Source: a virus
Lineage: Duplodnaviria > Caudoviricetes
Length of the DNA stretch: 61,298 bases
Reading direction: 5' to 3' (one strand)
IMG/VR virus record: IMGVR_UViG_3300047408_000236
Coordinates: 1-61,298 of that record
The notes under the pieces are model-generated. The model was not told the DNA's origin and did not search any database. It saw only the letters and a program-made list of their open reading frames with translations. Position numbers and translations under genes: made by a program. Positions 18,928 through 53,795 of this stretch are shown here, piece after piece (positions within the stretch are counted from its first letter, which is position 1; each line of letters starts with the position of its first letter).

Positions 18928-19559
18928 TCGCCATGCGCGACCTTGTCGAGCGCTACGACGTGACACCGAAAGCGGTCCTACACGTCGGCGCCCATCTTGG
19001 CGAAGAGGCTCCTGATTATCAGGCCGTGGGTGTTGAGCGCGTCTTGTGGATTGAGGCGAACAGAGCGCTGATGCCGGCGCTACAGGCGCACGTAGCGGGA
19101 TTCGCTGGTCAGCGAGCGTTGCAGGCTACGGTGAGCGACGTCAATGACGAGCCGGTGACGCTGCGACTGACGACCTTCTCGATGGCGTCTTCGATCCTGC
19201 CGCTCAAGGAGCACCTCAGGTTCTACCCGTCGATGCCCGAGGTCGGTGGGCAACTGGATATGAGCACCACAGTCGATATGTTGCTCGAGCAGCACGGCGA
19301 GTCGCCCGCGTTCGATATGGCCAACCTCGATGTGGAGGGCGCCGAGTTGTACGTGCTACGCGGCATGGCATCGGTCATGCCAAGTTTGAAGTGGGTCTAT
19401 ACCGAGGTCAATCACGAGGAGATGTACGAGGGCTGCGTCCTGGTGTCGCACATGGACGACTATCTTGGCGGCTTCGGGTTCAAGCGAGTAGCTATTCAGG
19501 ACGCGTATATCGGCAGTCAGATGATGGGCTTCGCGGATGCGCTCTATGCCCGAATCTAG
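18921..19559 (+). CDS. FkbM-family methyltransferase
   Basis: LHVGAH.GEE, IEAN, SSIL, LDVEGAEL.VLRG, YTEV. Confidence 0.88.
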   Translation: MLIAMRDLVERYDVTPKAVLHVGAHLGEEAPDYQAVGVERVLWIEANRALMPALQAHVAGFAGQRALQATVSDVNDEPVTLRLTTFSMASSILPLKEHLRFYPSMPEVGGQLDMSTTVDMLLEQHGESPAFDMANLDVEGAELYVLRGMASVMPSLKWVYTEVNHEEMYEGCVLVSHMDDYLGGFGFKRVAIQDAYIGSQMMGFADALYARI

Positions 19560-20331: not shown

Positions 20332-21053
20332 CGGCCTGGGCGTTCACGCTCGCGTACAACGAGGCGCCGCTGATCCGGTATTGGGTTCGAGCCTATCGAG
20401 ATTTCTGCGACAAGGTCATCGTCTACGTTGACATTGGCTCAGATGACGGGACGGCTACGCTCGCGCGGCGTGAGGGCGCTGAGGTGCGGCCTTACGGACC
20501 AAGTGATCTGGACGACGTTGCCTTCGTTGCCTTCGCTCAGGAGCACTACAGAGAGGCGCGCGGCCATGCCGATTGGGTGATCTGGGTCGACGCCGACGAG
20601 ATTCTGTACCACCCGCACATCGAGCAGCGACTTGTCGAACTGCGCGCTCAGGGGGTGAACTTTCCGACCGTCGCGGGCTACAGCATGATGGCCGATCACC
20701 CGCCGACCGGACTGGATCAGATCTACGACCAGATCCAGACAGGTTTTCCTTCACGAGCGTACGGCAAGGTTTGCATCTTCGACCCGATGCTTGACGTTCA
20801 GTGGGCAACCGGCAAGCACACCGCGACTGCCGTCGGCGCCGTGTCTGATGATGGCTCAGACCCGTTGAAGTTGCTGCACTACCGCTGGCTGGGCGAGGAC
20901 TACTTTATGCAACGCAACTGGCGGAACTTCAGACGAGTGAACGCACTCAACAAGGCCATGCAGCACGGCAAGGAGATTTATCCCGGTTATCAAGGGGAGT
21001 ACAGCCCGCAGTGGTACGCCGAACGCCGCAGCATGGTCGAGGTTTGCGTATGA
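20328..21053 (+). CDS. Glycosyltransferase family 2-like
   Basis: YNEA..I, D.GSDDGT, WVIWVDADE, LLHY. Confidence 0.85.
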   Translation: MTAWAFTLAYNEAPLIRYWVRAYRDFCDKVIVYVDIGSDDGTATLARREGAEVRPYGPSDLDDVAFVAFAQEHYREARGHADWVIWVDADEILYHPHIEQRLVELRAQGVNFPTVAGYSMMADHPPTGLDQIYDQIQTGFPSRAYGKVCIFDPMLDVQWATGKHTATAVGAVSDDGSDPLKLLHYRWLGEDYFMQRNWRNFRRVNALNKAMQHGKEIYPGYQGEYSPQWYAERRSMVEVCV

Positions 21054-21451
21054 CTACGGGCGTGGCGTTCGCGGTTCAGGCATACGTCGAGGAACAGGCC
21101 CAGGATGTGGTGTCACTGCTCAAGGCGTGCGGCTGGCAGGATAACGCGATCCCGACGTACGAGGTTCTGGCTGAGGCTTCGATGACCGGCTGCGCGTTTG
21201 TCGCGGTCAGGGACGGTCACGTGGTCGGGTTCATTAGGGTGATCAGTGATGGCGAGGTGGTGTCGTACGTGACGGAGGTGGCCGTGGATGCAGGGGCAAG
21301 ATTCCAGGGGATCGGGCGAGCGCTGATTGACGCTGTGGCTGCCGAGTTCCCGAAGGCGCGCATCGATCTGCTGTCGACGTCGAGTGCGCAGGAGTTCTAC
21401 GACACTCTCTGCTTTACGCGGAAGTCTGGTTATCGGAGATGGCCGCAGTGA
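21050..21451 (+). CDS. GNAT-family acetyltransferase
   Basis: VGFIR, VAVD...RFQGIGRALI, AQEFY. Confidence 0.85.
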   Translation: MTTGVAFAVQAYVEEQAQDVVSLLKACGWQDNAIPTYEVLAEASMTGCAFVAVRDGHVVGFIRVISDGEVVSYVTEVAVDAGARFQGIGRALIDAVAAEFPKARIDLLSTSSAQEFYDTLCFTRKSGYRRWPQ

Positions 21452-22539
21452 TCCCCCTTTTCAAAGTGTTCATGGCTCCCGATGCCAAGGATCGAGCCGG
21501 GGTAACGCTCGATTCTGGGTACGTCGGCGAGGGTCCGCGCGTACAGGAGTTCGAGCAAGCGTTTGCTGAGTTGGTGGGTTTCTCTTCTCGCCCACCGCTC
21601 GCGCTCAACTCCTGTACGTCGGCGCTCGACCTGGCCTGTCACCTGACCGGTGTCGGGCTGGGCGACGAGGTCATCACTACGCCGATGACGTGTACGGCCA
21701 CAAACGGCGTGCTGGTGAATCGCGGCGCAAGGATTGTGTGGGCTGACGTGGACCCGCTGACCGGTCTGATTGATCCCGCGGATGTGGCTCGGAAAATCAC
21801 GCGGCGTACGCGCGCCATTATGGCCGTTGATTGGGCTGGTCGGTCATGCGATTACCGGGCGCTGCGCTTTTTTGGTCAGCCAGTTATTCAGGATGCAGCG
21901 CACAATCTGTTCATCGATCCTGAGAACTGCGGTCACTACGTGGCCTGGTCGTTCCAGGCCATCAAACACCTGACCACTGGTGATGGTGGTGCGTTGCTCG
22001 TACCAGCGGGGCAATATAACCGCGGCCGTCTGCTCCGTTGGTACGGGCTCGATCGCACGTCATCTGCCGACTTCCGATGCTCGCAGGACATCAAAGAGGC
22101 TGGCTTCAAGTACCACATGAACGACATCGCCGCCAGCATTGGGTTGGCCAACCTGCCCCATGTCGCAGAACTCGTGGCTCACCACCGCGAGAATGCGGCG
22201 TGGTTCTCCCAGAGCCTCCAGGGCGTGCCGGGCATCACACTACCTCCTGCTGATCCCGGCTCGTCCTGGTGGCTGTATTGCCTGCTGGCCGATGACCGAG
22301 CGTCCTTGATCGATCATCTGGCCAGCCGCGGCATAAGTGCAAGTCCCGTGCACCGACGTAACGATACCCACCCGGCTTTCTACTACCCAAACGGTCCGCT
22401 ACCCGGCGTCGACCACTTCGCCGATCACGAGGTTGCCATCCCTGTGGGCTGGTGGATCTCTGAGAATGATCGGGGGCGGATCGTGGCGGCCGTACTCGAG
22501 TGGTCGCACTCGCGTCAATTGGTTGGAGCTGCGGCATGA
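21439..22539 (+). CDS. DegT/DnrJ/EryC1/StrS sugar aminotransferase (Lys-type)
   Basis: NSCTSAL, GDEVIT, DAAH, SFQAIKHLTTGDGG, GFKYHMND. Confidence 0.9.
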   Translation: MAAVIPLFKVFMAPDAKDRAGVTLDSGYVGEGPRVQEFEQAFAELVGFSSRPPLALNSCTSALDLACHLTGVGLGDEVITTPMTCTATNGVLVNRGARIVWADVDPLTGLIDPADVARKITRRTRAIMAVDWAGRSCDYRALRFFGQPVIQDAAHNLFIDPENCGHYVAWSFQAIKHLTTGDGGALLVPAGQYNRGRLLRWYGLDRTSSADFRCSQDIKEAGFKYHMNDIAASIGLANLPHVAELVAHHRENAAWFSQSLQGVPGITLPPADPGSSWWLYCLLADDRASLIDHLASRGISASPVHRRNDTHPAFYYPNGPLPGVDHFADHEVAIPVGWWISENDRGRIVAAVLEWSHSRQLVGAAA

Positions 22540-26651: not shown

Positions 26652-28829
26652 ATGCCTGTGCCAATTGCCGAGCTCTTCGTATCGGTGGGCGCCGATATCT
26701 CTGGTGCCACTCGCGGTCTGAGCCAACTGAACTCGCAACTTAACAATATTGGTAGTAATGCCGGAGCGGGGTTCAGTCTTGCGAACGTCGGCAAGAACCT
26801 CAGGACTATTGGGAGTCAGGCCAAGACCACGGGGTTCAACCTGACGCAAGACCTGACCGCGCCGATCCTGGGTATAAGTGCAGCGGTGTTCGGCGCAGGC
26901 TCAGATTTCGAGCACGCGTTTACCGAAGTCAAGCGTACGGTCACCGGTCTGGACGACACGCAACTCCAGGACTTGCGAAAAGATCTACTGGATATGAGCA
27001 AGACTCCCGCCGGCGGTCTGAAGACTGCTTCAGAACTGGCAGAGATTGCTGCGGTTGGCGGTCAACTCGGGCTCGCCGGCGGCGATATCAAGCAGTTCAC
27101 TTCGTTAGTAGCACGCCTTAGTTTGGCTACTAACCTGCCTTTTGCTCAGGTTGCTGACGATGTTGGCCGTGCGATCAACGTTCTCGGGTTGGCAAGTAGC
27201 GACTTCGAGCGGTTTGGGTCTGTCATTACTAAACTAGGAAATGACTTCGGCGGAACTGAAGCCGACATTCTGGAATTCAGCCGAAGGTTGGGCGGCACAC
27301 TGTCCTCACTCGGAGTGAAGCCGGCACAGATTGAGGCAATCGGCGCTGCCTTATCGGCGGCAGGGGTGCTTCCAGAGGCAGGCGCTACAGCGGTCAACCA
27401 GTTCTTCGTCGACATGGTCAATAGCCTGAATGAGACGAGTGGCGCATCTGAGGAGACGAAGCAGAAGCTCCAGAATTTGAAGGACACGATTTCTGATCTG
27501 AGCAGCAACCTCGAAGTAGCCTCGCTTCGTCAGAAAGAGTTTGGACGTAATACCCCGGCGTCAGTTGTCAAGGCCAATCAACTTGCGATACAGAAGTATC
27601 AGCGTGACCTTGGTCAGGCCAATACGAAGTTGGATGCGTTCTCGCAGACGTCGGCCGAAGGAACGCTGAATATCGGTGGCATGGCTAAGGTTGCCGGAGT
27701 CACTGATGAAGAATTCCGCAACCTTATCAAGACCGACCCAGCACGTGCCTTCGCGAGTTTCGTGGATGGATTACGTCGGATTCAACACTCCGCTGGCGGG
27801 CCAGCAGCGGTTACCAAGACGCTCGAAGAACTGGGTATCACAGGTGACCGACAGCGGGAAACGTTCCTCAACCTGGCCAACGCTCAACAAGATGTCACGT
27901 CGGCACTGAACATAGCCGAGCCTGCATGGAACAAGCAGACTGCGCTATCAGACGAAGTCGCTACCGCTATGGAGGACATGAAGAATCAGATCAAACTGGC
28001 TGCCAATGTCTTTCAAACATCACTGATCGATGCGTTCGACAAGCAAAGGCCAGCGATCCAGGCGCTCGTTGACCAGATCAATACCGACCTGATCCCAGCC
28101 TTCAAGAATCTAGTCGATTCGATTCCTGTATTGTCACCTGATGCGCTCAAAGCCCTTGGTGCATTGGCAGCGCTCGGTCCGGCGATTATTGCATTAGGTG
28201 CAGCGCTGTCGATCGTAGGTGCCATCATCCTTGTCCTGAGCGCTCCGTTAACACTGCCCATCATCGCCGTGCTCGCTGGCTTGGCGTTGGTGTTCGGGTT
28301 GGTCGCTGCAAATAAAGATACGATCAATAACGCCTTCGATAACATCGTCGCTGGAGCCAAGACGTGGGGCACCGATTTCAATAACGCGCTGCAGGCAGCA
28401 ATCCTTGGAGCGGGCTCGATCTTCTCGGCGTTCGGCACGTTCCTGGACGGCTTCTTCAATACAGTCATCTTGCCGATTTTCCAGCGATTCCCGGCCTGGA
28501 TTTTGGAACACGTGCTCGGCCCAGTCATTGGGCTACTCGAATTCTTACAAACTCTCGGGATCACCAGTATTCCCGGTGTAACCGCTGATCTCGGGGCAAC
28601 GATCGCCGATCTGAAGGCAAAGCAGACCGCTGCGGCGGCTACGGCCGGTGGTGCCCAAAACGCTATCAACGTGACGATCAATAACCCGATGGTCACGAGT
28701 CAGAATCTACTTGACCAGCTCGCGACCAATGTATCGAACGCAGTCACGACCGCGCTTATCACAGCTGAGAAGAGCGTGATCATCGCGCCACAGCCGTTGC
28801 CTGGCCATGTTCCGGGTACGCCGTTCTAA
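26652..28829 (+). CDS. Tape measure protein (TP901-like)
   Basis: 725 aa, helical, Ala-rich; IAELFV.V.AD start; hydrophobic segment near the C-terminus. Confidence 0.92.
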   Translation: MPVPIAELFVSVGADISGATRGLSQLNSQLNNIGSNAGAGFSLANVGKNLRTIGSQAKTTGFNLTQDLTAPILGISAAVFGAGSDFEHAFTEVKRTVTGLDDTQLQDLRKDLLDMSKTPAGGLKTASELAEIAAVGGQLGLAGGDIKQFTSLVARLSLATNLPFAQVADDVGRAINVLGLASSDFERFGSVITKLGNDFGGTEADILEFSRRLGGTLSSLGVKPAQIEAIGAALSAAGVLPEAGATAVNQFFVDMVNSLNETSGASEETKQKLQNLKDTISDLSSNLEVASLRQKEFGRNTPASVVKANQLAIQKYQRDLGQANTKLDAFSQTSAEGTLNIGGMAKVAGVTDEEFRNLIKTDPARAFASFVDGLRRIQHSAGGPAAVTKTLEELGITGDRQRETFLNLANAQQDVTSALNIAEPAWNKQTALSDEVATAMEDMKNQIKLAANVFQTSLIDAFDKQRPAIQALVDQINTDLIPAFKNLVDSIPVLSPDALKALGALAALGPAIIALGAALSIVGAIILVLSAPLTLPIIAVLAGLALVFGLVAANKDTINNAFDNIVAGAKTWGTDFNNALQAAILGAGSIFSAFGTFLDGFFNTVILPIFQRFPAWILEHVLGPVIGLLEFLQTLGITSIPGVTADLGATIADLKAKQTAAAATAGGAQNAINVTINNPMVTSQNLLDQLATNVSNAVTTALITAEKSVIIAPQPLPGHVPGTPF

Positions 28830-41945: not shown

Positions 41946-42377
41946 ATGCTCAAGTACACGGGGGTCGTGATCCACGGAACGCGCAGCGGCGTGTTCGGCA
42001 ACCCGGCCGAGGGCATCGGGACGGTGGTCTACTGCACCACGCCAGGGACCACGTCCTACAACTGGATCATTGATTACGACGGCACGATCTACGAGCTCGT
42101 CGATATCAAGAACTCGGCCTGGCATGCCACGTACTTGAATCGAAACCATCTCGGGGTCGGGCTCGCGCAGCCAACCGTCGATGACCCGATTCGTGATGCG
42201 CAGCATGCCAGCCTGAAATGGCTACTACAGAAGATCAACCACGAAAAGGGCGTGCCGCTCGTGCACGTGTTGGACGAGGATCAGCCGGGGTTGATCGAGC
42301 ACCGCGAGTCACAGCAAGGCCAGCAGTACGGGAAAAGCGATGTTGGCTACCAACTCGATTGGGCCACGATCTTGTGA
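41946..42377 (+). CDS. Endolysin, N-acetylmuramoyl-L-alanine amidase (Amidase_2)
   Basis: VVIHGT, SYNWIID.DG.I, AWHA, N...LGV, EHRE, KSD.G; frame is open upstream to 41835 and includes an SPN motif. Confidence 0.85.
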   Translation: MLKYTGVVIHGTRSGVFGNPAEGIGTVVYCTTPGTTSYNWIIDYDGTIYELVDIKNSAWHATYLNRNHLGVGLAQPTVDDPIRDAQHASLKWLLQKINHEKGVPLVHVLDEDQPGLIEHRESQQGQQYGKSDVGYQLDWATIL

Positions 42378-42575: not shown

Positions 42576-44207
42576 GTGCGCCCGCTCATCACCGCACTGG
42601 TTGCGATCCTCGCGCTCGGCGTCGTGCTGGTCCCAGGATTGGTAGGCATGGCACAGACGGCGCCGCCAGTTACCTTCCTCGAAACGTTCGACTTCGAGCC
42701 AGGTGCGCCCGTGCACTACGTGCCGCCGGGCTGGGATGTGTCGGTGGTTGCGCACGAGAACGAAACCATCGAGCCGATGTGGGCAAACCACGGCCCGAAC
42801 TGCGAGCCGCCGGATGATACGTGGCCGGGCGGTACGCCGAACGGCGTACACAATCACTTCATCTCACTGGAGCCGCAGACAACTTTCGACTGCTCGAACC
42901 ACATCATGACCAGCATGAACGCAGGCTACGGCGCGGTCTATCTGACGCCGCCGGCCATGCTCGATTTCCGCAATGGCACGGCCACGCTCGAGTGGGACAT
43001 GTCGACCGAACGCACCAGCTCACGTGACTGGGTCGACATCATGATCTTGCCGTTCGACAACCTGATGGCGCTCAACATGGTCGACTTTCATACACCCACG
43101 GACGGCATTCAGGTCGAGCTGCAGGGCGGCGGCAATGTGTTCGCGGCACATACGTTTCTGCCCGCGTTCTCGTCTGCCTGCGGCCCGCTGAGTTACGCCA
43201 AGTCAGCGTCGATCTATTACTGCGGACTGCCCTTTGATGGTTATCACCAATGGGACATGATTCAGCAGTTGTACGGCTTGCATACGTCGGCCGCGCGCAG
43301 GGATCACTTCATCATCGAGCTTTCCAAGACCCATCTGCGCATGGGCTTTCGGCCAGCGAGCGCAGTCGGCTCTCCGTTCCATCCGTACTTCTACTGGATC
43401 GATTCAGACATTCCGGGCGGGCTTCGGTTCGACGAGGGTGTCGTGCAGCTCAACCAACGGGCGTACAACCCGCTCAAGCCGTGTGGTCCTGGCGTCGGTG
43501 ACGCGGGCGCGTCCACAGTCGGCTGGCAGGGGTCGTGCAGAGCAGCCACGTGGCACTGGGACAACGTGGCGATCAGTCCCGCTACGCCGTTCACCATCAT
43601 CCCTGGCGCGCGCAAGGTGCAGTCTGGTGGCAGTGTGACGTTCCCGCTGCCGGCGCCCGCGAACTCGTTCCTGAAAGCGGCCGGCTCGCGCGGGACCGAA
43701 TATTCGTTGAACGGTACGGCGTGGCAGCGGTTGCCGGTGGTCGGGCCTGAGGGACCGGTCGAGGCTGGTGATTCATTCTGGACGGCCGTGCCCGCGGGTA
43801 CTCAGACGGTGCGGTTCCGTAACGGCTCGGTCCAGGATGTGTATCTCTATAGCCGCACACCGCGGGATGCCATCCCGATTCCGACGCCATTGCCGGCTAC
43901 GGCTACTGCCATTGCTACACGAACGCCGGTGAGCACACCAACGGCTACCCCGACCGCGTTCGTGCCGCCTACGGCGACATCAACGCTTCCGCCAGCAACG
44001 GCAACGGCTGTTGCCGCGGCGACCGCGACGGCAGTAGTGGCTGCCACCGATACGCCGACACCAACGCCTGAACCACCGGTAGACAAGCCACTCACGCCTA
44101 CGGTGATGCCGACAACGTTCGAGTGTTATGCGCGTGCCGTCGAACGGCAGGATGGCGTCGATACCGAAATCCTGGTGTTGCAGCCCAGTACGTACTGCCG
44201 GCCGTAA
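42576..44207 (+). CDS. Secreted protein with Pro/Thr-rich C-terminal linker
   Basis: Signal peptide ending near GMA-Q; PTPLPATAT...TPTPTPEPP tail. Confidence 0.7.
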   Translation: MRPLITALVAILALGVVLVPGLVGMAQTAPPVTFLETFDFEPGAPVHYVPPGWDVSVVAHENETIEPMWANHGPNCEPPDDTWPGGTPNGVHNHFISLEPQTTFDCSNHIMTSMNAGYGAVYLTPPAMLDFRNGTATLEWDMSTERTSSRDWVDIMILPFDNLMALNMVDFHTPTDGIQVELQGGGNVFAAHTFLPAFSSACGPLSYAKSASIYYCGLPFDGYHQWDMIQQLYGLHTSAARRDHFIIELSKTHLRMGFRPASAVGSPFHPYFYWIDSDIPGGLRFDEGVVQLNQRAYNPLKPCGPGVGDAGASTVGWQGSCRAATWHWDNVAISPATPFTIIPGARKVQSGGSVTFPLPAPANSFLKAAGSRGTEYSLNGTAWQRLPVVGPEGPVEAGDSFWTAVPAGTQTVRFRNGSVQDVYLYSRTPRDAIPIPTPLPATATAIATRTPVSTPTATPTAFVPPTATSTLPPATATAVAAATATAVVAATDTPTPTPEPPVDKPLTPTVMPTTFECYARAVERQDGVDTEILVLQPSTYCRP

Positions 44208-44228
44208 CCATCTTCCTCCCCCCACGAG

Positions 44229-44280
44229 ACAGCCCCTGTCTGGTCCTCTACGGACTGGGCAGGGGCTGTTTTCGTTTTTA
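44229..44280 (+). terminator. Rho-independent terminator between convergent operons
   Basis: ACAGCCCCTG...CAGGGGCTGT stem followed by TTTCGTTTTT. Confidence 0.8.
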
Positions 44281-44284
44281 TGGG

Positions 44285-45892
44285 CTAGTCGGCCGTCGCG
44301 TGGCCGCGCGTACGGTGCATGCGCTGGATGTTGACCTTCTTGGTGACCGGCTCGCCGTGGTACGGGTTGACGCAGTGCCGCGGACACGATCGTCTGTGAT
44401 CCCACTCGCCCACCGGGAACCAGCGGCCATTGGCGATCTCCCACACGACCTGATGGGCCGGCCGGTTGTTCTTCGGGCGGCCGTCAGGATACGCCCAGCG
44501 CTGGACGCCGTAGCCGTCCTTGTCGATCGAGCCTGTCCACAGCCAGCAGTCGCCTTGCGATCGGTCAATCTTGCCCAGCACCTCGCGCACCTCGATCGGC
44601 GGTAAAGGCAGCGCCGGTCGCTCAGGCTCGGGTGCCCGCCCTATCTGCTCGATGACCACCCTACGCCCGTAGGGAGGCTCTGTAGGAATAGGCGTAGGGG
44701 GTGGAACGTAGGAAGATTTGGGCGGCTTGGGGAACTTGACGAGGCGACGGATCCTGCCGTGGGCGATGTAGGCAGTGAAGTCCTGCATATTGGCGGGGTC
44801 GAGGTCGCGGTAGTCGAGGCCGAGCCGGTCAGCGGCTATTTTCTGGAGTGGCTTGAGTTCCTGGGCGAAGTAGACGCGGGTGCTGATATTGGCACTGATG
44901 CCGTCGTTGAGATCCGATTCGGCCTGGGTGAGGTCGTCGACTGCGATTTTGCGGCGGCGGCCGGCCCGGTGGAATGGTTCTGCGAGGTCGATGCGTTCGC
45001 CGAGTTGGCCGGCTTCTTCGAAGATCAAGCGAAAGCCGCCGGGTACGAGTGACGCGCAGCGTTTGGCTTCGGCCAGACCGAGTGCAACAACGTCGCCGCC
45101 GAGTGATGGGTGATCGAAGGAATCGTTGTCGAGCAGGACGCTGATGCCGCGGTTCAGGAGGTCGGCAATGTCGACGCCGTCGGGGCCGATGCTAGTACCG
45201 AACTGGTCGGCCAGGTCGAGGAATCTGGCCACCCAACCGGCACAGACGGTGCGCAGCTCGCGGTCCGACTTGACGGTCTGCTCGAGCCGCTCGCCAATCA
45301 AGCGTAGGGTCCGTTCTTCTCCGCGGGCGTCCAGTTGACGGATCACGTCGGCGGTGGCACGGCGGGCAGCCCGTTTCCAGGCGCCTACGCCACCCGAGCG
45401 GAATACTTCGGTGAGTCGTTCGGCTACTTCGGTTGGTGAGCCAATCAGAAAGTTGACCGGGTTGGTGCTGACGCACGCGGTCCAGCGGAAGCCGTGCAGG
45501 CGCACTACGGCGTCGACCAGTGGGTCAGACAGATCAGGTGTGGCTACCAGTGCCACTCGTTTGCCGTCGAGCCTGACGGTTGCAACGGATGCGCTCTTGC
45601 CGGCTCCAGTTGGCCCGAGCCAGGCGCAGTGTGGCTTTCTTGTCCGATCGATGACCAGCCCATCGACCTTCATCAGATCGTGTGGCGGGCGAAGGCTCCA
45701 CCACCAGCGGCGGAACAGCGGCGTATTGGTTGGACGTCGGACTATGACGTCCTTGGCGGAACCGTTGTCAATCTTGCCACGATCATTGCCAGGCATGATG
45801 ACAAACAAAAGCCCTGCTACTCCGAGAAGCAGCAGGGCTGTACGCGTCTGATCGTTCTGTTGGAGAAACTCAGCCAGTGATGTCGGGTTCAC
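44285..45892 (-). CDS. VirD4/TraD-like coupling ATPase fused to a C-terminal HNH endonuclease domain
   Basis: N-terminal TM, Walker A GPTGAGKS, Walker B LIFEEAG, GR..K..V...TQ; Pro-rich linker; then CWLWTG..DKDGYG...AHQVVW...DH...C..CVNP.H...VT...N. Confidence 0.7.
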   Translation of the reverse strand: MNPTSLAEFLQQNDQTRTALLLLGVAGLLFVIMPGNDRGKIDNGSAKDVIVRRPTNTPLFRRWWWSLRPPHDLMKVDGLVIDRTRKPHCAWLGPTGAGKSASVATVRLDGKRVALVATPDLSDPLVDAVVRLHGFRWTACVSTNPVNFLIGSPTEVAERLTEVFRSGGVGAWKRAARRATADVIRQLDARGEERTLRLIGERLEQTVKSDRELRTVCAGWVARFLDLADQFGTSIGPDGVDIADLLNRGISVLLDNDSFDHPSLGGDVVALGLAEAKRCASLVPGGFRLIFEEAGQLGERIDLAEPFHRAGRRRKIAVDDLTQAESDLNDGISANISTRVYFAQELKPLQKIAADRLGLDYRDLDPANMQDFTAYIAHGRIRRLVKFPKPPKSSYVPPPTPIPTEPPYGRRVVIEQIGRAPEPERPALPLPPIEVREVLGKIDRSQGDCWLWTGSIDKDGYGVQRWAYPDGRPKNNRPAHQVVWEIANGRWFPVGEWDHRRSCPRHCVNPYHGEPVTKKVNIQRMHRTRGHATAD

Positions 45893-46010
45893 TGATGAGC
45901 ATTAGCCACAGCAGCATCCCCGCTGCCGCGAACACGGCCACCCACCATCCCAGGAACGCTACCGCTCCAACCAGAAGCCCGATCTTCGCTAGTCGCATTG
46001 CCCACGCCAT
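45870..46010 (-). CDS. 46-aa membrane peptide overlapping the 3' end of the VirB4-like gene
   Basis: GAGG RBS; MAWAMRLAKIGLLVGAVAFLGWWVAVFAAAGMLLWLMLISEPDITG. Confidence 0.45.
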   Translation of the reverse strand: MAWAMRLAKIGLLVGAVAFLGWWVAVFAAAGMLLWLMLISEPDITG

Positions 46011-47550
46011 GACGGACCTCCCTCGGGTCAGTGGTTATTTTCTGATGCTCTTCCTTTGACGCCTGAATGTCAACTGGTACGACCATGCCGCTCACGTCCA
46101 GTAGTGCCTGGCCGCGAGCTGCGCTGCGCAGGAACCGGCGCGCCTCATCGCTCAGTCGGACCTTCTCGGCCAGCAAGTCGCCGTCTGGCCCGTTTTGCTT
46201 CAGATACACCTTGATGGCCGAGTTGTTCAGGACAGCGAGCCCCTGGTCGCTCGTCAACAATTCCTGTACCTGCTGCGATGCTATCCAGAGACTCAGATAG
46301 TGGTGGCGTCCGATGCGCGCTATTTCCTCGATGAGACTGGCCAGGGCTGGATCACGCAGGAGTGACCACAGCTCGTCAAGAATAAGAAGTCGTGGCCGAG
46401 GATCACGCTTTGCCGTGTCCCACAACTCGGACACAAACGCTCGCAAGCGGTCTGCACGTTCGCTATAGGGTACGTCTGCCAGGTTGAAGGTTTGGGCGTG
46501 GGCGACACCGGCGTATTCCGCGGGACTTCGTTGCTCAACAATCAGCACCTCTACATCTTTGAGCCGGCCAGCCAGTAGCTTGAGAAAGTAACTCTTCCCG
46601 GCGCCGACCTTGGCCAGCACAATGCCGCCGAAGCTTTCTAGACTCGGGTCGAACGGATCGAGCCGGACCTCCATTGAGCCAGTATGCGTCGTACCCAGCG
46701 GCGCGCCATTCGTGTGGCGCACCGTGGCTGGTTGGAACGGCCATGTTGACGCAACCGAAGTACAGTCGAGCGTGTGCCATGCACCGAGCAGACGACATAC
46801 GCCTGTGGCGCTAGTAGCCTCAAGGCCACGATCGTGCTCCCATGTGGCGGGCCGGACATCCCCGAGTGCTAGCCCGATCTCGTGTTGCAACGTCGCTACT
46901 CGGCTCATCAGTAGCGTGCGCTCGTGAGCTCGTACGGTGAACGCAATCGCCACTTTTACTGGCCGATCCTTGTGCGCGATCAGGTCTTCGCGGACCCGGC
47001 GCGAGTCGCGTGTGGTGAGCATGTCGCCCGCATCATTCGAGTCCTGATGCCGTTTCTGTTGGAGTTTGAGCTTACGCGCGATCCAGGCCGAGTCTTGCGC
47101 CTCGATGTGAATGCCGACGTCAACCGGTAAGTCACCGGCGAGCGCATTGCCGAGCCAGCCTGGCGCTACCTCCCGCGGCCAGCGGCGCAGGACGAGTGAC
47201 GCGCAGTAGTCATCGCCCGCAAATACACAGTCGGACCAGGTGAGTGTTGCTGGTTCGATATCCGCGGTGGCGATATAGCATCGAAGCCCTACCCCTTCGA
47301 GTGTGCGCGCGAGTGTACGGGTGCGCCACCCACTCTCGTCATCATCAAGGACTGCCAGCCAACGACGCTCAAGCTGTGGTGGCTGAGGCCACGTCGGATG
47401 TGTCTCGATGGTCCTTGCCTGTCCGATGAGCTGGATCGGATGGCTCAGGCCCATGAGTGCGCGTGCGAACGCTTCCATTTGATCGGACCTGGCGCTCTGC
47501 GACTCGAGCGCGTAGTTTGTCGTTGGTTGCAACGCGAGTACGCTGCGCAT
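45889..47550 (-). CDS. VirB4/TraE-like ATPase
   Basis: Walker A AKVGAGKSY, Walker B LLILDELW, ARIGRHH.LSLWIASQ, NNS.IKVYLKQ, G.ALL. Confidence 0.8.
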   Translation of the reverse strand: MRSVLALQPTTNYALESQSARSDQMEAFARALMGLSHPIQLIGQARTIETHPTWPQPPQLERRWLAVLDDDESGWRTRTLARTLEGVGLRCYIATADIEPATLTWSDCVFAGDDYCASLVLRRWPREVAPGWLGNALAGDLPVDVGIHIEAQDSAWIARKLKLQQKRHQDSNDAGDMLTTRDSRRVREDLIAHKDRPVKVAIAFTVRAHERTLLMSRVATLQHEIGLALGDVRPATWEHDRGLEATSATGVCRLLGAWHTLDCTSVASTWPFQPATVRHTNGAPLGTTHTGSMEVRLDPFDPSLESFGGIVLAKVGAGKSYFLKLLAGRLKDVEVLIVEQRSPAEYAGVAHAQTFNLADVPYSERADRLRAFVSELWDTAKRDPRPRLLILDELWSLLRDPALASLIEEIARIGRHHYLSLWIASQQVQELLTSDQGLAVLNNSAIKVYLKQNGPDGDLLAEKVRLSDEARRFLRSAARGQALLDVSGMVVPVDIQASKEEHQKITTDPREVRHGVGNATSEDRASGWSGSVPGMVGGRVRGSGDAAVANAHQ

Positions 47551-47991
47551 TCAGGGCTTGCTCCAGAAGTGCCGAAGCCTGCTGCTCCAGTGAACGCCAC
47601 TCGCGCGCGGCAATCTCGGACAACGTGTCAGTGTCCGTACCATCACGGACCGTAACCTTGAGTTCTGCCATTGCTCCCGCCATCGTGGCCAGATGACCAC
47701 GTGAAAGTAGTGCCCAGCGGCTGCTAGCCACTCGTGTATGCGGCGCATGCCGAGCTTGCTGCGTAACCCGCTAGCGATCGCACCAACGCCTGACACGTCG
47801 CACGCCGGCTCACCGGTCAGGGTCCACGCGCCAACGCATAGCACGATGGGTACGGCCCACCACCACGAGTAACCGTTGTTGATCAGGTACCAGATGCTCG
47901 CTACCCCGAGCGCGAGCATCACGAAGTCCCAGAACGGGGTACGCCGGTCCAGTTCGGTCGGAACAATGATGACTGGTGAGCGTTCGTCCAC
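47551..47991 (-). CDS. PrgI/VirB3-like membrane protein
   Basis: VP.ELD followed by two TM helices; directly upstream of the VirB4-like gene. Confidence 0.5.
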   Translation of the reverse strand: MDERSPVIIVPTELDRRTPFWDFVMLALGVASIWYLINNGYSWWWAVPIVLCVGAWTLTGEPACDVSGVGAIASGLRSKLGMRRIHEWLAAAGHYFHVVIWPRWREQWQNSRLRSVMVRTLTRCPRLPRASGVHWSSRLRHFWSKP

Positions 47992-48216
47992 TCAGGCGTG
48001 TGGTGCCGCGCCGGTGACCAGTGCAGCGATAGTCTGCGCGCCGAGCACGATCGCGGCGCCAATCAAGCCGCCAGTGATCCAGTCTTTCGCTGCTTTCTTA
48101 TCGCCGATGAGCCACTGGTAGCCACCAACAGAGATGGCTAGTAGCAGGACGGCGGGCAGGATGAACTGCTGCGCGCTCGTCAATGCTGTTCGGATAGTTG
48201 CGCCGACTGTTTCCAC
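47992..48216 (-). CDS. TrbC/VirB2 pilin-like protein
   Basis: 74 aa, two hydrophobic helices, GGYQWLIGD..AAK.WI...LIG.AIVLGA pattern. Confidence 0.65.
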   Translation of the reverse strand: METVGATIRTALTSAQQFILPAVLLLAISVGGYQWLIGDKKAAKDWITGGLIGAAIVLGAQTIAALVTGAAPHA

Positions 48217-48227
48217 TCTTCCCTCGT

Positions 48228-48329
48228 TTACTTGAGGAACGTGGCATGGGCAATCACGAGGATGCTCATGCCACAGGCGATGATCATGGAAAGCGCTAGT
48301 GTCCAGCCGATGAAGTACCTCCTAGCCAT
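48228..48329 (-). CDS. 33-aa membrane peptide
   Basis: MARRYFIGWTLALSMIIACGMSILVIAHATFLK fills the gap within the operon. Confidence 0.45.
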   Translation of the reverse strand: MARRYFIGWTLALSMIIACGMSILVIAHATFLK

Positions 48330-48864
48330 GACGGACCCGGCCGAACCCGACGAGGTGTGCGCGCCAGAACGGGTCCGTATAGGACTGGCGGCCAACAACA
48401 GGCTCAATCGCGCTGACCATCCAACCCGGCGCGACGACTATCCCCACATGGGTTATTCGATCGGGGGAGCTGTAGGTTCGCTGGAAGAAGACCAGGTCGC
48501 CAACGTCGGGGGTAGTGACGAGCGGTACGTCGTTGTACTGAGTTTGTGCGGTACGCGGCAGTGAGTAGCCGAGTGTGCGGAACACCGCTACCGTGAGGCC
48601 CGAGCAGTCGATGCCGCGTCGGTCATTGCCACCGAAAACGTAGGGCACGCCCATGTATGGCTGAATAGCGGCCATAAGTGCTGATGTGTCGCTGAGTAGC
48701 GGTCCTGCTGGTGCGACTTGCGCGGGTGCGGGCACGGTGCCCGCTGGCTGCAGGTTCGAGCCGGCGAACCAAAACGTCGACCAGGCTTGTGAATGCAAGC
48801 CGACTGCTGGTGCGAGGATGAACATGGCGAACACGGCGAGGCCGACACCGATCCAGCGCATCAT
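48322..48864 (-). CDS. NlpC/P60 (C40) peptidoglycan peptidase with signal/TM segment
   Basis: GVPYVFGG, GIDCSGL, LPRTA..Q, GDLVFF, HVGI. Confidence 0.92.
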   Translation of the reverse strand: MMRWIGVGLAVFAMFILAPAVGLHSQAWSTFWFAGSNLQPAGTVPAPAQVAPAGPLLSDTSALMAAIQPYMGVPYVFGGNDRRGIDCSGLTVAVFRTLGYSLPRTAQTQYNDVPLVTTPDVGDLVFFQRTYSSPDRITHVGIVVAPGWMVSAIEPVVGRQSYTDPFWRAHLVGFGRVRHG

Positions 48865-49802
48865 GCGCGAAACAACAATCTCCGCAGGATCAGGAACTTG
48901 CCAATACCGCCACCACCTCCACCGCTGTGGTGGCTCGCACCGAACATGCTCGGCATCTTGCGCGCCAGCAGCAGCACCGCGATGCCGAGCACGGTGCCCA
49001 CAAAGCCTGTGCCAATCCCACCGAGCACCGGCGCCAGCCGAAGACAGATAACGATCGCGATCTGGCTGAACAGCGTGCCCGCAGCCAGCGAGGTGTAGCG
49101 GCTCGCCCACGAGTCGGTCTGCTCGAGCGACTTGGTCACGAGCGCGAGTGGGCCGACGATGATCAAAATGTCAATCAGCGCAAGCCTGAATACCACGGAG
49201 AACACCAGCATCAAGGCCACGACCGCATAGACGATCACGAGCACCGACGGCCCGAAGGCTTCGACGGGATTGCTCGTGAGTGTGGGTACTGTCATGTGTG
49301 GTCGGACGATGCTGGCCAGGGACGGCGCGGCAATGGCGGCACAGATGCCGTTGTTCAGGCTGATGCCGATCTCCCACCACATCAGGTTGAGCCCACTCAC
49401 GACCGCGCCATAGGCAAGGCGGCCGTAGGAGGCGCCCTGATGGAGCATGTGGCCGAACGCCGCGGCAACGACGAACAGGACGACCAATGACATTGCTACA
49501 GCAGTAGCGGTCGTGGCTAACGACCGGACGGTGTCATTACGGAACGTCCACTCGGGTGGGGTGGTCGTGAAAATGTCGGCCATGTTGATGGCATCGTTGG
49601 CCCACTGCACGAGCGTGGGTGCGACGAGCTGCACAACGATGGCATTCGAGCTCTCTACAGATGCATCGGCTATGGCTTCAGGGTCTGGCGGTGGCGCCTC
49701 GACGGTCACATGGTTCTGAATGACCTGGATTGGCTGAGGCTGCGGTTGTGGCAGGGGCGGGCCGATCTGCAGGAAGAGGACGGCGAGTATCGCCAGTATC
49801 AC
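48861..49802 (-). CDS. VirB6/TrbL-like polytopic membrane protein
   Basis: Multiple TM helices; R...I.ILII.GPLA......T.SW pattern; Gly-rich C-terminus; first gene of the operon. Confidence 0.65.
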   Translation of the reverse strand: MILAILAVLFLQIGPPLPQPQPQPIQVIQNHVTVEAPPPDPEAIADASVESSNAIVVQLVAPTLVQWANDAINMADIFTTTPPEWTFRNDTVRSLATTATAVAMSLVVLFVVAAAFGHMLHQGASYGRLAYGAVVSGLNLMWWEIGISLNNGICAAIAAPSLASIVRPHMTVPTLTSNPVEAFGPSVLVIVYAVVALMLVFSVVFRLALIDILIIVGPLALVTKSLEQTDSWASRYTSLAAGTLFSQIAIVICLRLAPVLGGIGTGFVGTVLGIAVLLLARKMPSMFGASHHSGGGGGGIGKFLILRRLLFRA

Positions 49803-49891
49803 GCGACTCTAGACATTCCCTTGTCTCTTACCTTACACTGGCTGGACAAGGACTGACAAGAGAGGGCTCCTGTATCGTTTACGTACAGGGA

Positions 49892-50092
49892 ATGCGACTG
49901 ACGCGTCTAAAGGACCGGCGCGAGCGGGCCCTGCTGACTCAACATGAGTTGGCTGAACGCGCCGGTGTCAGTCGCGCCACGATCGCGGCAATCGAGGCTC
50001 AGAAGGCCGAGCCGCAGTTTTCCACAATCCGCAAACTTGCGGAGGCACTGAAGTGCGAACCAGCCGACCTGATGGAACCCGAACAGACCTAA
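49892..50092 (+). CDS. XRE-family HTH transcriptional regulator
   Basis: LTQ.ELAERAGVSR.TI..IE...P...TIRKLAEAL; divergent from the T4SS-like operon; stop codon lies in site A. Confidence 0.9.
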   Translation: MRLTRLKDRRERALLTQHELAERAGVSRATIAAIEAQKAEPQFSTIRKLAEALKCEPADLMEPEQT

Positions 50093-50111
50093 TGGTGCTT
50101 AGATCTAGCAA
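50080..50111. repeat. Palindromic recombination-like site A
   Basis: CGAACAGACCTAA-TGGTGC-TTAGATCTAGCAA. Confidence 0.75.
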
Positions 50112-50346
50112 GCCCTGCGAGCACAGCGATCGAGTTCGGCCTGTCGTCTGGCAACTCATCGGACTCGAAGAAGTGCCGCAGACCGTCGTCTGCGAGCAGT
50201 GCATGCGGCCAGTCAATGCTCAGGCCGTCGGTCACACGGCCTATCACGAAGCAGACGATGGCTGGTATGTGCCGATTCAGCCCCAAGGTCCTGACGACCA
50301 CGAAGAACGCTGCTACCTCGCTGGCTATGGCGAAGACGACCAATGA
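50092..50346 (+). CDS. Hypothetical protein (cassette 1)
   Basis: Starts inside site A (TAATG); CxxC. Confidence 0.55.
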   Translation: MVLRSSKPCEHSDRVRPVVWQLIGLEEVPQTVVCEQCMRPVNAQAVGHTAYHEADDGWYVPIQPQGPDDHEERCYLAGYGEDDQ

Positions 50347-50725: not shown

Positions 50726-50892
50726 CCGCCGAGCAGTTTGAGCGAGTCGCACAGCTGGTCGTGGAGATCGCGAGCGATGATCCATCCGGCGATGACCTCG
50801 TGACCCTCTGCCTTGCGGCTATGTACATGCTGCCTGAGAGCGTCCGCAGTCGCGAGAGTCGCGAGCGCCTTGGCAGACCTAATTGTTGTTAG
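50722..50892 (+). CDS. Small hypothetical protein (cassette 1)
   Basis: TTGA overlap; TAG stop lies in site B. Confidence 0.45.
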   Translation: MTAEQFERVAQLVVEIASDDPSGDDLVTLCLAAMYMLPESVRSRESRERLGRPNCC

Positions 50893-50901
50893 AGGTGACC
50901 A
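50870..50901. repeat. Palindromic recombination-like site B
   Basis: TTGGCAGACCTAA-TTGTTG-TTAGAGGTGACCA. Confidence 0.75.
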
Positions 50902-51799: not shown

Positions 51800-51827
51800 T
51801 AGACCTAAAGATGGTTAGGGTTGATAT
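51796..51827. repeat. Palindromic recombination-like site D
   Basis: TTGATAGACCTAA-AGATGG-TTAGGGTTGATAT. Confidence 0.75.
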
Positions 51828-51912: not shown

Positions 51913-51919
51913 CTGAGGC

Positions 51920-51951
51920 TTGTCAGATCTATGTGCCGTTATGTCGGATGA
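51920..51951. repeat. Palindromic recombination-like site E
   Basis: TTGTCAGATCTAT-GTGCCG-TTATGTCGGATGA. Confidence 0.7.
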
Positions 51952-52180
51952 GCCGTGGTGTGACAACGAGTGCCCAGCGCAGGCTCAGTTCGTCTGGTTT
52001 GGCCGCTACCTCTGCGAGCCGTGCGCCCACCGCGAGCACGCGCGCGGCGCCTTTCGCATGTGTCCCTGGCATGGGCGCTACTGCTCAGTCTGGCGTGGCG
52101 AGCACCGAGAAACTGACCACGAGCGCAGGAGCAAACCCCCCGAGGCAACGGCCCAGCCGCCGCTGTTTTGTCAGATCTAA
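51941..52180 (+). CDS. Cys/His-rich small protein (cassette 5)
   Basis: ATG lies in site E, TAA lies in site F. Confidence 0.55.
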   Translation: MSDEPWCDNECPAQAQFVWFGRYLCEPCAHREHARGAFRMCPWHGRYCSVWRGEHRETDHERRSKPPEATAQPPLFCQI

Positions 52181-52199
52181 CTGTCCTAAGTTCTGACAA
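52168..52199. repeat. Palindromic recombination-like site F (most symmetric; candidate primary/att site)
   Basis: TTGTCAGATCTAA-CTGTCC-TAAGTTCTGACAA (11/13 arm symmetry); 3 bp from the recombinase stop codon. Confidence 0.8.
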
Positions 52200-52202
52200 G
52201 AT

Positions 52203-53129
52203 TTAGAGGTTCCAGCGAGCCGACAGTGATGCGGTGTCGGCGATCTCGTTGACCGTGCGGTCACTCAGCGTAATGTAATCGCTTAAAACGTCCCGACTCA
52301 TCTGGCCGAGTCTCGAGCGGAGCTGGATCTCGGCGCCCGGTCGCTGCGCCAGGAACTCCGTCGCAGCAGAATGCCGCGTCCGATGCGGGTGAGCGTTCGG
52401 TACGCGAGCAGCCGTGCCCATCTCCGTGAAAATCTCGCGAACCCGGCGTGGCGAGAGCGGTAAGCGCTCACGTGTGGTGAATAGCGCATCGATGCCGGCG
52501 CGCGCCTCGCGCACCTTCAGCCAGTTTCGAAGCGCCGACAGGCTTGGGCCGCCATCACGCCGAGCCTGGACGCGAAAAATCACTTTGCGCGGATGGCCGT
52601 TCTTCGTGCGGCGAAACAGGATCGAGCCCTCGACCAGGTCGACGTCGGCGACGCTTGCGCTACAGAGCTCGCCCACGCGACAGCCGGTATCGAACAGCAT
52701 CAACAGCACCGCTCGATCGCGAATCGGATTGGCGCCACATGCCGCCGCTTGTACCAACCGGCGCGCTTCGTCTTCGGTGAACGGCTTGCGATGAATCTTC
52801 TGGACGCGTGGCACCTTGAGCCGAGCCAGCGGATCGAACGGGTAGACGTCGTTTTCCCACAGGAACCGCGCCCAGGTCTTGAGCGTGGTCACTCCCTGCT
52901 TTTCGGTGACCAGCCCACCACGGCGACCGTGGGACCGGCCGCGGAGCCAGGCCTGCCACTCGCGCACGAACTGCGGGTTGAGTGCGTCGAGCGTGGGCTC
53001 GACCTCGTGCTCGACCAGGAACGCCAGGAAACTGTCCTGGTAAATGCGGTACAGGCGCAGCGTCATCGGGCTGCGGTTCAATCGCTCCAAGCTACGCCGG
53101 TGAAACTCAGCGGCTTCGATGAGGTCCAC
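52203..53129 (-). CDS. Tyrosine recombinase/integrase (XerC/D-like, no arm-binding domain)
   Basis: RDRA.L..L.DTG.R.GEL, TKNG, HPH.TRH..AT, LGQ, D-Y; GTG start with GGAGGG RBS. Confidence 0.92.
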   Translation of the reverse strand: MDLIEAAEFHRRSLERLNRSPMTLRLYRIYQDSFLAFLVEHEVEPTLDALNPQFVREWQAWLRGRSHGRRGGLVTEKQGVTTLKTWARFLWENDVYPFDPLARLKVPRVQKIHRKPFTEDEARRLVQAAACGANPIRDRAVLLMLFDTGCRVGELCSASVADVDLVEGSILFRRTKNGHPRKVIFRVQARRDGGPSLSALRNWLKVREARAGIDALFTTRERLPLSPRRVREIFTEMGTAARVPNAHPHRTRHSAATEFLAQRPGAEIQLRSRLGQMSRDVLSDYITLSDRTVNEIADTASLSARWNL

Positions 53130-53261
53130 AGGAAGCCCTCCAGCACCCCTTTTGATCCCGCGTAATGTAGAACGCAAGTTCTAGGCTTTCAAGGGGCTGG
53201 GGTTGGTTAGACGGTGAACTGGTGCGATAACAACGGTTGGGCGGCCGGGCACGGGCGGCAG

Positions 53262-53795
53262 TTAGAGCGCGGCGGCGGCAGTTACGTTGAAACGGTGGCC
53301 ACCCAACGGCCGGCCAATCGGGAATTGACGTGGCCTTAACGTGCTACCCGAGTCGCCCCGCTTGGGGCGCGTACGAGTCTTTCGGCCACTAACGGCGGCA
53401 TTAACGGCGGCCTGGGCACCCTCATTAACGGCGGTCCCCACCTGGTGGATCAGGTCGACCACCGAATCGCCCTGGGCCTTTAATGCTTCCCAGAAGTAAT
53501 CTTCGTGTTCCGGCCCAACGGCCGCTAGCCAACGGTCGAGCTGATCGCGCACGAGCTGGCGGCGGGCGTCGATCTGCTCGTGGGAATCGCCCTTGCCGAT
53601 CACGCCGGCCAGTCCGGCCGGGGTCATATCAAAGGCAGCGGCGATATTCTCGAAGGTTTCCATCTCGACGTTGTCATCGCCGTTGATGATGGCGTACGCC
53701 TTGGATGCGCTGATGTTGGAACGTCTGGCGATCTCTCGGACAGACCAACCGCGACGCAGCCGCTCGGCCTCGAAAAAGTGTTGAAGCGCGGCCAC
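53262..53795 (-). CDS. Immunity repressor (XRE HTH)
   Basis: RGWSVREIARRSNIS.S....I.NG HTH; divergent from the Cro side; upstream of the recombinase. Confidence 0.8.
   Translation of the reverse strand: MAALQHFFEAERLRRGWSVREIARRSNISASKAYAIINGDDNVEMETFENIAAAFDMTPAGLAGVIGKGDSHEQIDARRQLVRDQLDRWLAAVGPEHEDYFWEALKAQGDSVVDLIHQVGTAVNEGAQAAVNAAVSGRKTRTRPKRGDSGSTLRPRQFPIGRPLGGHRFNVTAAAAL

Follow-up and report, generated by a model that had tools for sequence, protein, structure and literature searches.

A conserved operon resembling a minimal, relaxase-less type IV secretion system in complete genomes of a temperate tailed-phage lineage

The virus record IMGVR_UViG_3300047408_000236, analysed here over its whole length of 61,298 bp (hereafter the window), contains an operon of seven minus-strand genes between positions 44285 and 49802, the products of which resemble, to differing degrees, components of type IV secretion systems (T4SSs). 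The first and last 127 bases of the record form an exact terminal repeat, such that the assembly closes into a circle of approximately 61,171 bp; CheckV gives a completeness of 100, and matches to PHROG families identify the structural, lysis and integration genes listed in Table 1, along with a head-tail adaptor and a primase-helicase. The window is a complete circular temperate tailed-phage genome; that it is a complete tailed phage had already been proposed in an earlier model-made reading of the letters alone (the sequence-only reading). That reading also described the tightly coupled minus-strand operon itself, and all seven open reading frames (ORFs) are indeed present. The operon occupies the accessory region that extends from the lysis genes to the integrase, lies on the side of the integrase and repressor genes, and has its own regulator. 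With a GC content of 0.61-0.63, it falls within the 0.55-0.64 measured over the genome.

The genes of the operon are packed very closely. The stop codon of the VirB6-like gene overlaps the start of the hydrolase gene (ATGA, 48861-48864), that of the pilin-like gene abuts the start of the gene for a 146-aa protein (TGAGTG), which in turn abuts the VirB4-like start (TGAATG), and the last gene, for a second ATPase, has a start codon that shares bases with the VirB4-like stop (GTGA). As these junctions overlap or abut, the operon is translationally coupled. The terminator and the divergent XRE-family regulator that the sequence-only reading had placed at its two ends were both recovered, as a hairpin and as an HTH_3 match respectively (Table 1). 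A single sigma-70-like sequence is found on the plus strand at 49810-39; it is a match to the consensus only, and the count of such matches is not above that in shuffled sequence.

Table 1. Positions of the operon genes, their flanking elements and the other phage genes referred to in the text (HTH, helix-turn-helix; AF2, AlphaFold2)
Feature	Position	Strand	Evidence or remark
Membrane-anchored coupling-protein-like ATPase fused to HNH_3 nuclease, 535 aa	44285-45892	-	phrog_826 and AF2/Foldseek
VirB4-type ATPase, short form, 553 aa	45889-47550	-	PDB VirB4 4ag5 match
Two-helix protein in VirB3/PrgI position, 146 aa	47551-47991	-	Directly upstream of VirB4-like gene; 12 loci conserve it (alignment A3)
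Pilin-like protein of TrbC/VirB2 type with two hydrophobic helices, 74 aa	47992-48216	-	Pfam TrbC E 6.5e-5, T4SS_pilin E 5.4e-4, both below cut-offs
Single-pass membrane micropeptide, 33 aa	48228-48329	-	Most likely internal ATG at 48329
Peptidoglycan hydrolase (NlpC/P60) with a membrane anchor and a VirB1-type role, 180 aa	48322-48864	-	Pfam NLPC_P60 E 5.7e-20, above cut-off
Polytopic membrane protein, VirB6/TrbL-like, 313 aa	48861-49802	-	Pfam TrbL_4 E 8.1e-4, below cut-off
Hairpin terminator, common to the operon and the convergent gene 42576-44207	44227-44271		20-pair stem, 11 GC pairs, plus-strand T-run; inverted repeat I17
Divergent intergenic region, presumed control region	49803-49891		89 bp
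XRE-family HTH regulator, divergent from the operon	49892-50092	+	Pfam HTH_3 E 1.3e-15; listed ORF 49730-50092, likely ATG 49892
TerL (large terminase)	3499-4968		PHROG match
Portal	9817-11331		PHROG match
Major head protein	14409-15908		PHROG match
Tape measure	26652-28829		PHROG match
Amidase endolysin	41946-42377		PHROG match
Tyrosine integrase	52203-53177	-	PHROG match
HTH repressor-like gene	53262-53795	-	Opposed by HTH gene on other strand

The identification of the larger ATPase as a member of the VirB4 type is solid. It matches the Thermoanaerobacter VirB4 structure (PDB 4ag5) with an E-value of 2.1e-8 as a single sequence and of 8.9e-19 with a profile of 30 sequences, 11 orders of magnitude ahead of the next profile match, STIV B204 (2.4e-7). 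NCBIfam models give concordant results (CD1110 VirB4-like 2.7e-19, TraC 2e-15, VirB4_CagE 1.1e-11), these matches being to the C-terminal part only and below the curated cut-offs, while the N-terminal and C-terminal domains both match cellular VirB4 proteins (best E-value among the 201 genomes sampled, 4.8e-40). The Walker A (G318, K319, S320) and Walker B (D392, E393) residues are invariant in the 30 sequences. The VirB4-like assignment of the sequence-only reading is thus upheld by the structural, family and N-domain matches, the protein grouping with VirB4 rather than with the HerA/FtsK or Tad/Esx families. Beyond approximately residue 511 the sequence is not conserved among the homologues. 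A very hydrophobic 46-aa ORF in another frame (45870-46010, minus strand) overlaps the 3' end of the gene, and may be either a real small membrane gene or a chance occurrence.

The second ATPase is less conventional. Residues 1-395 comprise a P-loop ATPase with a hydrophobic helix at its N-terminus, and residues 420-531 an HNH_3 nuclease domain (phrog_826, E 5.9e-20). Across 35 aligned sequences there is no variation in the Walker A and Walker B motifs or at the catalytic-type His, Cys and Asn residues of the HNH domain, and the fusion is retained across 112 proteins; the profile of the ATPase part detects 128 proteins among 1.84 billion representatives, and no close relative of the fusion was found outside the lineage's metagenomic and viral contigs. 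When the AF2 model (predicted local distance difference test score, pLDDT, 85) was compared with the PDB using Foldseek, HerA had the best E-value (4d2i, 3e-11, template modelling (TM) score 0.47), followed by TrwB (1gl7, 1.4e-10, TM-score 0.65), with VirB4 at a TM-score of 0.64; the matches listed also include the SIR2/HerA and HerA-DUF antiphage complexes and DndH. The protein itself matches no type IV coupling protein (T4CP) family in Pfam, its AAA_10 match having an E-value of 1.1e-3, and no FtsK_SpoIIIE match was detected by six-frame search of the window at E <= 1. Among 46 distant relatives, however, the families found are TrwB_AAD_bind (20), TraG-D_C (18), DUF87 (10), FtsK_SpoIIIE (9) and HerA_C (8). 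Because of the TrwB fold match, and because the distant relatives fall mostly in T4CP families, the protein is best described as coupling-protein-like with a possible HerA or FtsK affinity; it groups best, if not cleanly, with the coupling proteins. The VirD4-like label of the sequence-only reading therefore has some support from fold and relatives, though not from a clean match to the VirD4 family, and the C-terminal HNH domain had been missed.

Of the envelope proteins, the wall hydrolase has a solid NlpC/P60 identity. Its start had been placed at 49110 in the sequence-only reading, but is most likely to be the ATG at 48864, from which the 180-aa protein begins with a hydrophobic anchor. All ten loci examined have in this slot an ORF of 182-202 aa whose N-terminus includes a hydrophobic segment, and in one of them (L017) the catalytic part is lysozyme-C-like (PDB 3cb7, E 8.2e-6). 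The slot is retained while its catalytic domain is swapped between loci. The small transmembrane peptide noted earlier is likewise present with a corrected start, giving a most likely length of 33 aa; three other loci (L001, L004 and L013) have hydrophobic ORFs of 29-32 aa at this place, of which that in L004 matches it with an E-value of 0.002, and no family match was found in Pfam, PHROG or NCBIfam.

The pilin-like and VirB6-like proteins were also compared through their homologues in the lineage. TrbC is matched by six of eight lineage homologues of the 74-aa protein (best E 3.9e-12) and T4SS_pilin by five of the eight, such that a TrbC/VirB2-type, pilin-like assignment seems good at the level of the lineage. 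For the 313-aa polytopic protein, TrbL_4 is matched by two of nine lineage homologues (best 6.4e-7) and TrbL by one of the nine, and the top five PDB matches of the low-confidence AF2 model (pLDDT 63) found by Foldseek are all TrwI/VirB6 chains of R388, at E 0.1-0.55; the signal for a VirB6/TrbL-like protein is weak but consistent. Profiles of these two proteins had no match in the PDB.

The 146-aa protein encoded directly upstream of the VirB4-like gene was called 'PrgI/VirB3-like' in the sequence-only reading, a label that lacks sequence support: the PrgI family of Pfam had no match up to an E-value of 10, and hhalign with the alignment of the protein returned E 0.24 against a PrgI-family protein. 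Nor was any match found in Pfam, PHROG, NCBIfam or the PDB, and the ESM Atlas yielded nothing usable. A complex predicted between this protein and the N-terminal 310 residues of the VirB4-like protein scored 0.53, against 0.00 for the best control, with runs agreeing in at least 51% of contacts and a partner pLDDT of at least 68. Of 80 solved complexes, 58 attain the mark applied to such scores, as do two of 110 mismatched pairs, and scores of 0.60 or below are those of seven of the 80 solved complexes and of both mismatched pairs that pass, so the prediction constitutes weak support. By its position, its two-helix topology and this predicted contact, the protein may tentatively be considered VirB3/PrgI-like.

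Several parts expected of a conjugation system were searched for across the whole genome. Six-frame searches with the relaxase-type families Replic_Relax, Relaxase, TrwC, MobA_MobL, Mob_Pre and Rep_trans gave no match at E <= 1, in line with the sequence-only reading, which had recognised no relaxase; Replic_Relax (PF13814) was also absent from the three related complete phage records. No match at E <= 1 was obtained with Pfam TpcC, the one family searched for a VirB8/TcpC-like scaffold, and the repeat search of the window detected no oriT-like structure. Among the ORFs scanned with Pfam or PHROGs no MreB/ParM-like actin was matched, no search aimed at actin families having been made. The claim that the gene set is the core of a monoderm mating-pair formation (MPF) system is supported, firmly for the VirB4-type ATPase and the hydrolase, well at lineage level for the pilin-like protein, and more weakly for the coupling-protein-like, VirB6-like and VirB3-position proteins.

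The segment is not an assembly chimera, as contigs from other soil sequencing runs bridge both of its borders (X2 covering 43738-44662 and X3 covering 49510-50149) with zero differences. One contig each of X2 and X4 carries a joint between 44598 and 48415 that skips 3816 bases and has four extra letters; its shorter side amounts to 19-21 letters, below 30, and it is probably unreliable.

The operon had no match in a blastn search of GenBank phages or in a single-sequence scan of viral contigs. An alignment-based scan of the viral contigs recovered four IMG/VR records with the operon in the same order, three of which are 97-100% complete according to CheckV, and it is also found in further metagenome loci, the protein identities being 45-67%. 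The integrase is upstream on the same strand in four of the loci (L001, L009, L010 and L017), an XRE homologue diverges from the operon in five (L003, L006, L009, L010 and L017), and TerL and a ParB-methylase gene follow the operon in L001. Among the 120 VirB4-like matches listed, about 107 are 43-86% identical, all but one lack a source name or carry 'hypothetical protein' or another generic name, and many are on contigs of 44-68 kb. The capsid gene of the window has a homologue in one of the three complete relatives; as this gene differs among phages that share the operon, the module travels among mosaic phages. In the 78-kb relative (record G003, carrying locus L004) the major head protein homologue is in two pieces (C1:28733-30467; 58% and 84% identity) separated by a gap, with two stop codons in the first piece, and an insertion, an intron or an intein is possible.

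Only one cultured phage among 50,697 phage records searched by tblastn encodes a full-length relative of the VirB4-like protein. This is gp155 of Bacillus phage G (E 1e-38, with 93% of the protein from the window covered; two records of the same genome), the other matches being six partial ones confined to faecal 'Bacteriophage sp.' contigs. The surrounding block, gp150-gp157 (JN638751), has nearly the same gene order and the same gene set as the window: gp150 is pilin-like (T4SS_pilin E 3.7e-6; hhalign E 1.4e-4 with the window's pilin-like protein), gp151 and gp152 are small membrane peptides, gp153 is a TrbL_4 protein (E 1.8e-11; hhalign E 1.3e-4 over 218 columns with the VirB6-like protein), gp154 is a 125-aa two-helix protein (hhalign E 0.086 with the 146-aa alignment), and gp156 is a second ATPase, the third best viral fold match to that of the window (BFVD E 1.8e-10; hhalign E 4.7e-4). 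There are nevertheless clear differences, in that the HNH nuclease of phage G is a separate gene (gp157) directly after gp156, the pilin-like gene precedes the VirB6-like one, no wall hydrolase is seen in the gp150-gp157 block, and a Replic_Relax protein, gp146 (E 4.1e-25, annotated as SPO1 27.3-like), is encoded 3 kb upstream; phage G is moreover a 498-kb Bacillus phage, and its inspected stretch contains no integrase. The block's only annotations in the record are 'VirB-like', 'MsbA-like' and 'HNH', and a literature search found no paper on it. In a tree of VirB4 proteins, made by a quick method from 35 rows hand-picked from more than 120 homologues (one of which, L023, has an end branch of 9.25 and was probably translated in the wrong frame), the soil-phage proteins lie on one side of a branch with a Shimodaira-Hasegawa-like approximate likelihood ratio test (SH-aLRT) value of 65, while phage G, Chlorohelix and others fall in an unresolved fork, allowing no conclusion on a common phage clade. 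As the gene order and position are the same in relatives, the fusion is kept and phage G has a counterpart, the operon is a long-resident module of a phage lineage rather than a recently captured piece of an ICE (integrative and conjugative element).

Phages carrying T4SS-related genes have been described previously. According to the available text of Pathria et al. (2012; PMC3357382), the 'DNA translocation operon' of 0305phi8-36 and SPO1 encodes a relaxase of the Replic_Relax type and a coupling ATPase of the AAA_10 family, together with VirB6-like and MreB-like proteins, and in temperate phages that have such an operon, recombinase genes adjoin it. The window shares with these operons the combination of a coupling-type AAA_10 ATPase and a VirB6-like protein on a phage genome, AAA_10/P-loop_TraG signals being present in both of its ATPases (Pfam). 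It differs in that, as presented in the same text, they are defined by a Replic_Relax/MobC-type relaxase together with an MreB-like gene, with no VirB4, pilin, hydrolase or HNH gene described. No direct sequence match between the window ATPases and 0305phi8-36 or SPO1 was found in the phage collection. The link is one of kind, made by way of phage G and its SPO1 27.3-like gp146, and the module is placed alongside those operons. An apparent mention of 'phage g' in the available text of that paper proved to be 'phage genome' rather than phage G.

Among cellular systems, the closest layout to the phage module is that of a linear plasmid of Embleya sp. NBC_00896 (NZ_CP108778, 274386-285538), typed as 'non-mobilizable', on which genes for PrgI, an XF1762-family protein, a VirB4-like protein, VirD4, Replic_Relax and NlpC/P60 lie in one row; this is likely to be an unrecognised conjugation system. 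Like the window, monoderm T4SSs of the MPF-FATA/FA type, here represented by the Embleya row and a chromosomal cluster of Dormibacteraeota (L005), combine in one operon a protein in the PrgI position, VirB4-type and coupling ATPases, a hydrolase (NlpC/P60 or CHAP) and a large membrane protein. Unlike the window, these cellular clusters have VirB4 proteins of 643-769 aa and a canonical VirD4 with strong T4SS-DNA_transf, TrwB_AAD_bind and TraG-D_C matches. The Embleya cluster also includes Replic_Relax, whereas the version in the window has a divergent coupling ATPase, an HNH fusion and no relaxase, and is carried by a genome that encodes virions. Prophage DNA is known to move by cell contact in phage-ICE tandems (Huang et al., Sci Adv 2026, PMC13651849) and in the 'conjugative prophage' Phi1207.3 (PMC4260502), as far as the accessible parts of these papers report. 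The conjugation machinery of the tandems comes from an ICE that is adjacent but separate, and their authors state that these are not hybrid elements; the channel genes of the window, by contrast, are within the phage genome proper. T4SS parts in phages have therefore been in print since 2012, and what is new here is the minimal set of this lineage with its ATPase-HNH fusion, no description of either the lineage or the fusion having been found in a literature search.

The host is probably a high-GC monoderm soil bacterium. The window has no tRNA gene, and TerL relatives are spread over so many phyla as to be uninformative on this point. A scan of a genome collection found only one distant VirB4, in a Dormibacteraeota metagenome-assembled genome (MAG). 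VirB4 matches are present in 49 of 201 genomes of that phylum (a tally that includes one unpublished genome, G177), none of them a close full-length relative, and the ATPase-HNH profile has marginal, partial matches in 11 of the 201 and no match in genome G004. The 118 GenBank phage records that match the HNH domain are all phages of Actinomycetes, and one VirB4-like homologue, on a 5-kb contig, is labelled as a Mycobacterium MAG.

Some features of the remainder of the genome merit description. The gene that converges on the operon terminator (42576-44207, plus strand) follows the endolysin and a 58-aa hydrophobic ORF, and encodes a protein of 543 aa that has a hydrophobic segment at its N-terminus and a linker rich in Pro, Thr and Ala, for which Pfam, PHROGs and NCBIfam have no match. 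On the other side, a 20-nt motif occurs three times at gene boundaries in the plus-strand block that follows the XRE gene (50084-50103, 50874-50893 and 51800-51819), and a 30-nt inverted repeat (51919-51948 and 52171-52200) flanks an 86-aa gene (51920-52180); both could represent regulatory or recombination sites. Further genes, for sugar-nucleotide metabolism and glycosylation, are interleaved with those for terminase, portal, capsid and adaptor (5043-9801, 12473-13681 and 16802-22539) and encode an epimerase, a FabG-like reductase, a transaldolase, glycosyltransferases, two aminotransferases and a methyltransferase.

The reading that is tentatively favoured, at somewhat less than an even chance, is that the operon represents a conserved, phage-resident, relaxase-less minimal T4SS module of an MPF-FATA-like kind that serves for relaxase-independent export of DNA. 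The hydrolase would open the cell wall locally, and the membrane proteins and the VirB4-type ATPase would build and power a channel through the envelope. The coupling ATPase would nick or cut DNA by means of its own HNH domain, in place of a relaxase, and feed it into the channel, resulting in contact-dependent transfer independent of virions, for which the most plausible substrate would be the excised or replicating phage genome. DNA is suggested as the substrate because a nuclease recurs beside, or fused to, the second ATPase: HNH in the window and phage G, and Replic_Relax in phage G and plasmids. The more specific proposal, that this temperate lineage spreads both as virions and by a relaxase-independent conjugation in which an HNH-cut phage genome is pumped through the VirB4/VirB6 channel, is rather doubtful. 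The phage-ICE hybrid and the effector export suggested in the sequence-only reading are conjectural. Given the counterpart in phage G, a role adapted to the phage is no less likely than classical conjugation.

A number of considerations weigh against export of the phage genome by conjugation. With no relaxase, oriT, FtsK domain or VirB8/TcpC-like protein found, a defining half of conjugation is missing, and the VirB6-like and VirB3-like assignments are weak. By Foldseek E-value the second ATPase matches HerA as well as it does TrwB, and pairs of HerA with nucleases are known defence systems. Covalent piloting of DNA is not known for HNH enzymes. If phage G has no lysogenic state, as we presume, transfer from a lysogen to another cell would not be a general function of the module, and the VirB4 tree leaves the grouping of phage G with the soil phages unsettled. 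Finally, the operon of 0305phi8-36 can be deleted with no growth defect in plaques, and its function is given as unknown in the available text (PMC3357382).

Another possibility, in line with what has been proposed for the operons of the Bacillus phages and distinct from conjugation by a lysogen, is that the module assists the phage cycle, moving the phage's own DNA across a membrane during infection, for example between compartments or neighbours of filamentous, mycelial or sporulating hosts. The same gene set in Bacillus phage G is consistent with such a role, propagation by translocation among closely packed cells is proposed in the accessible text of Pathria et al. (PMC3357382), and a partial view of the SPP1 literature provides gp32, a non-essential TrwB/VirB4/FtsK-like protein with membrane partners (PMC6316719). 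We judge it unlikely all the same, as the cell biology of the host lends it no support and the operon, with its own XRE regulator, lies beside the integrase and apart from the early and late operons. That same accessory position between lysis genes and integrase, under separate control, would suit a system serving the lysogen, in which the channel exported effectors or toxins, or built a pilus or adhesin, the HNH domain being delivered or acting as an accessory nuclease rather than processing DNA for transfer. Co-opted T4SSs that deliver effectors and toxins are reported in the sections available of one review (PMC12282955), and the operon does include a pilin-like protein; however, no candidate effector gene is conserved in the operon across loci, the HNH domain is fused to a membrane-anchored cytoplasmic motor rather than to a secreted protein, and the accompaniment of the phage G set by HNH and Replic_Relax points to DNA, leaving secretion or a surface structure quite improbable.

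The adjoining immunity and integrase genes of the prophage accessory region are also what might be expected of an exclusion or defence function, whereby a membrane-anchored HerA-like ATPase-nuclease, with membrane partners, would block or destroy incoming phage or plasmid DNA at the envelope and thereby protect the lysogen. This would account for the ATPase-nuclease fusion and for HerA having the best Foldseek E-value, with SIR2/HerA, HerA-DUF and DndH among the matches, but it leaves the VirB4-type ATPase and the pilin-like, VirB6-like and hydrolase proteins as channel parts with no role in known HerA defence. The higher TM-score with TrwB (0.65) than with HerA (0.47), and the predominance among the distant relatives of T4CP families (20 and 18 of 46) over HerA families (10 and 8), further argue against defence, which is slightly less probable than secretion. 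Least probable by far is that the segment represents an independent conjugative or mobilisable element nested within the phage, or an artefact of assembly: its gene content is plasmid-like and it occurs in phages with different capsid genes, but it lacks an integrase, relaxase and flanking repeats of its own, its GC content is within the genome range, relatives sharing 45-67% protein identity have it at the same place beside the phage integrase, and contigs from independent runs span its two borders.

Gene flow is treated as taking two separate routes, one by phages and the other by conjugative elements. In the portion available of a 2025 review, true 'conjugative phages' are stated not to have been found. 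In the present lineage, complete phage genomes carry, as a fixed and selected component, a T4SS gene set of the channel-building kind, with a motor fused to a nuclease at the place where one would look for a relaxase. The family of ATPase-HNH proteins is small and easy to track. Were the module to be used in defence or secretion instead, it would still constitute an unrecognised use of T4SS parts by phages. Should it move DNA, it would provide a relaxase-free way to initiate transfer, a function for the 'DNA translocation operons' of Bacillus phages that have been unexplained since 2012, and a possible means of virion-independent phage spread, which would be relevant in soil aggregates where particles diffuse poorly.

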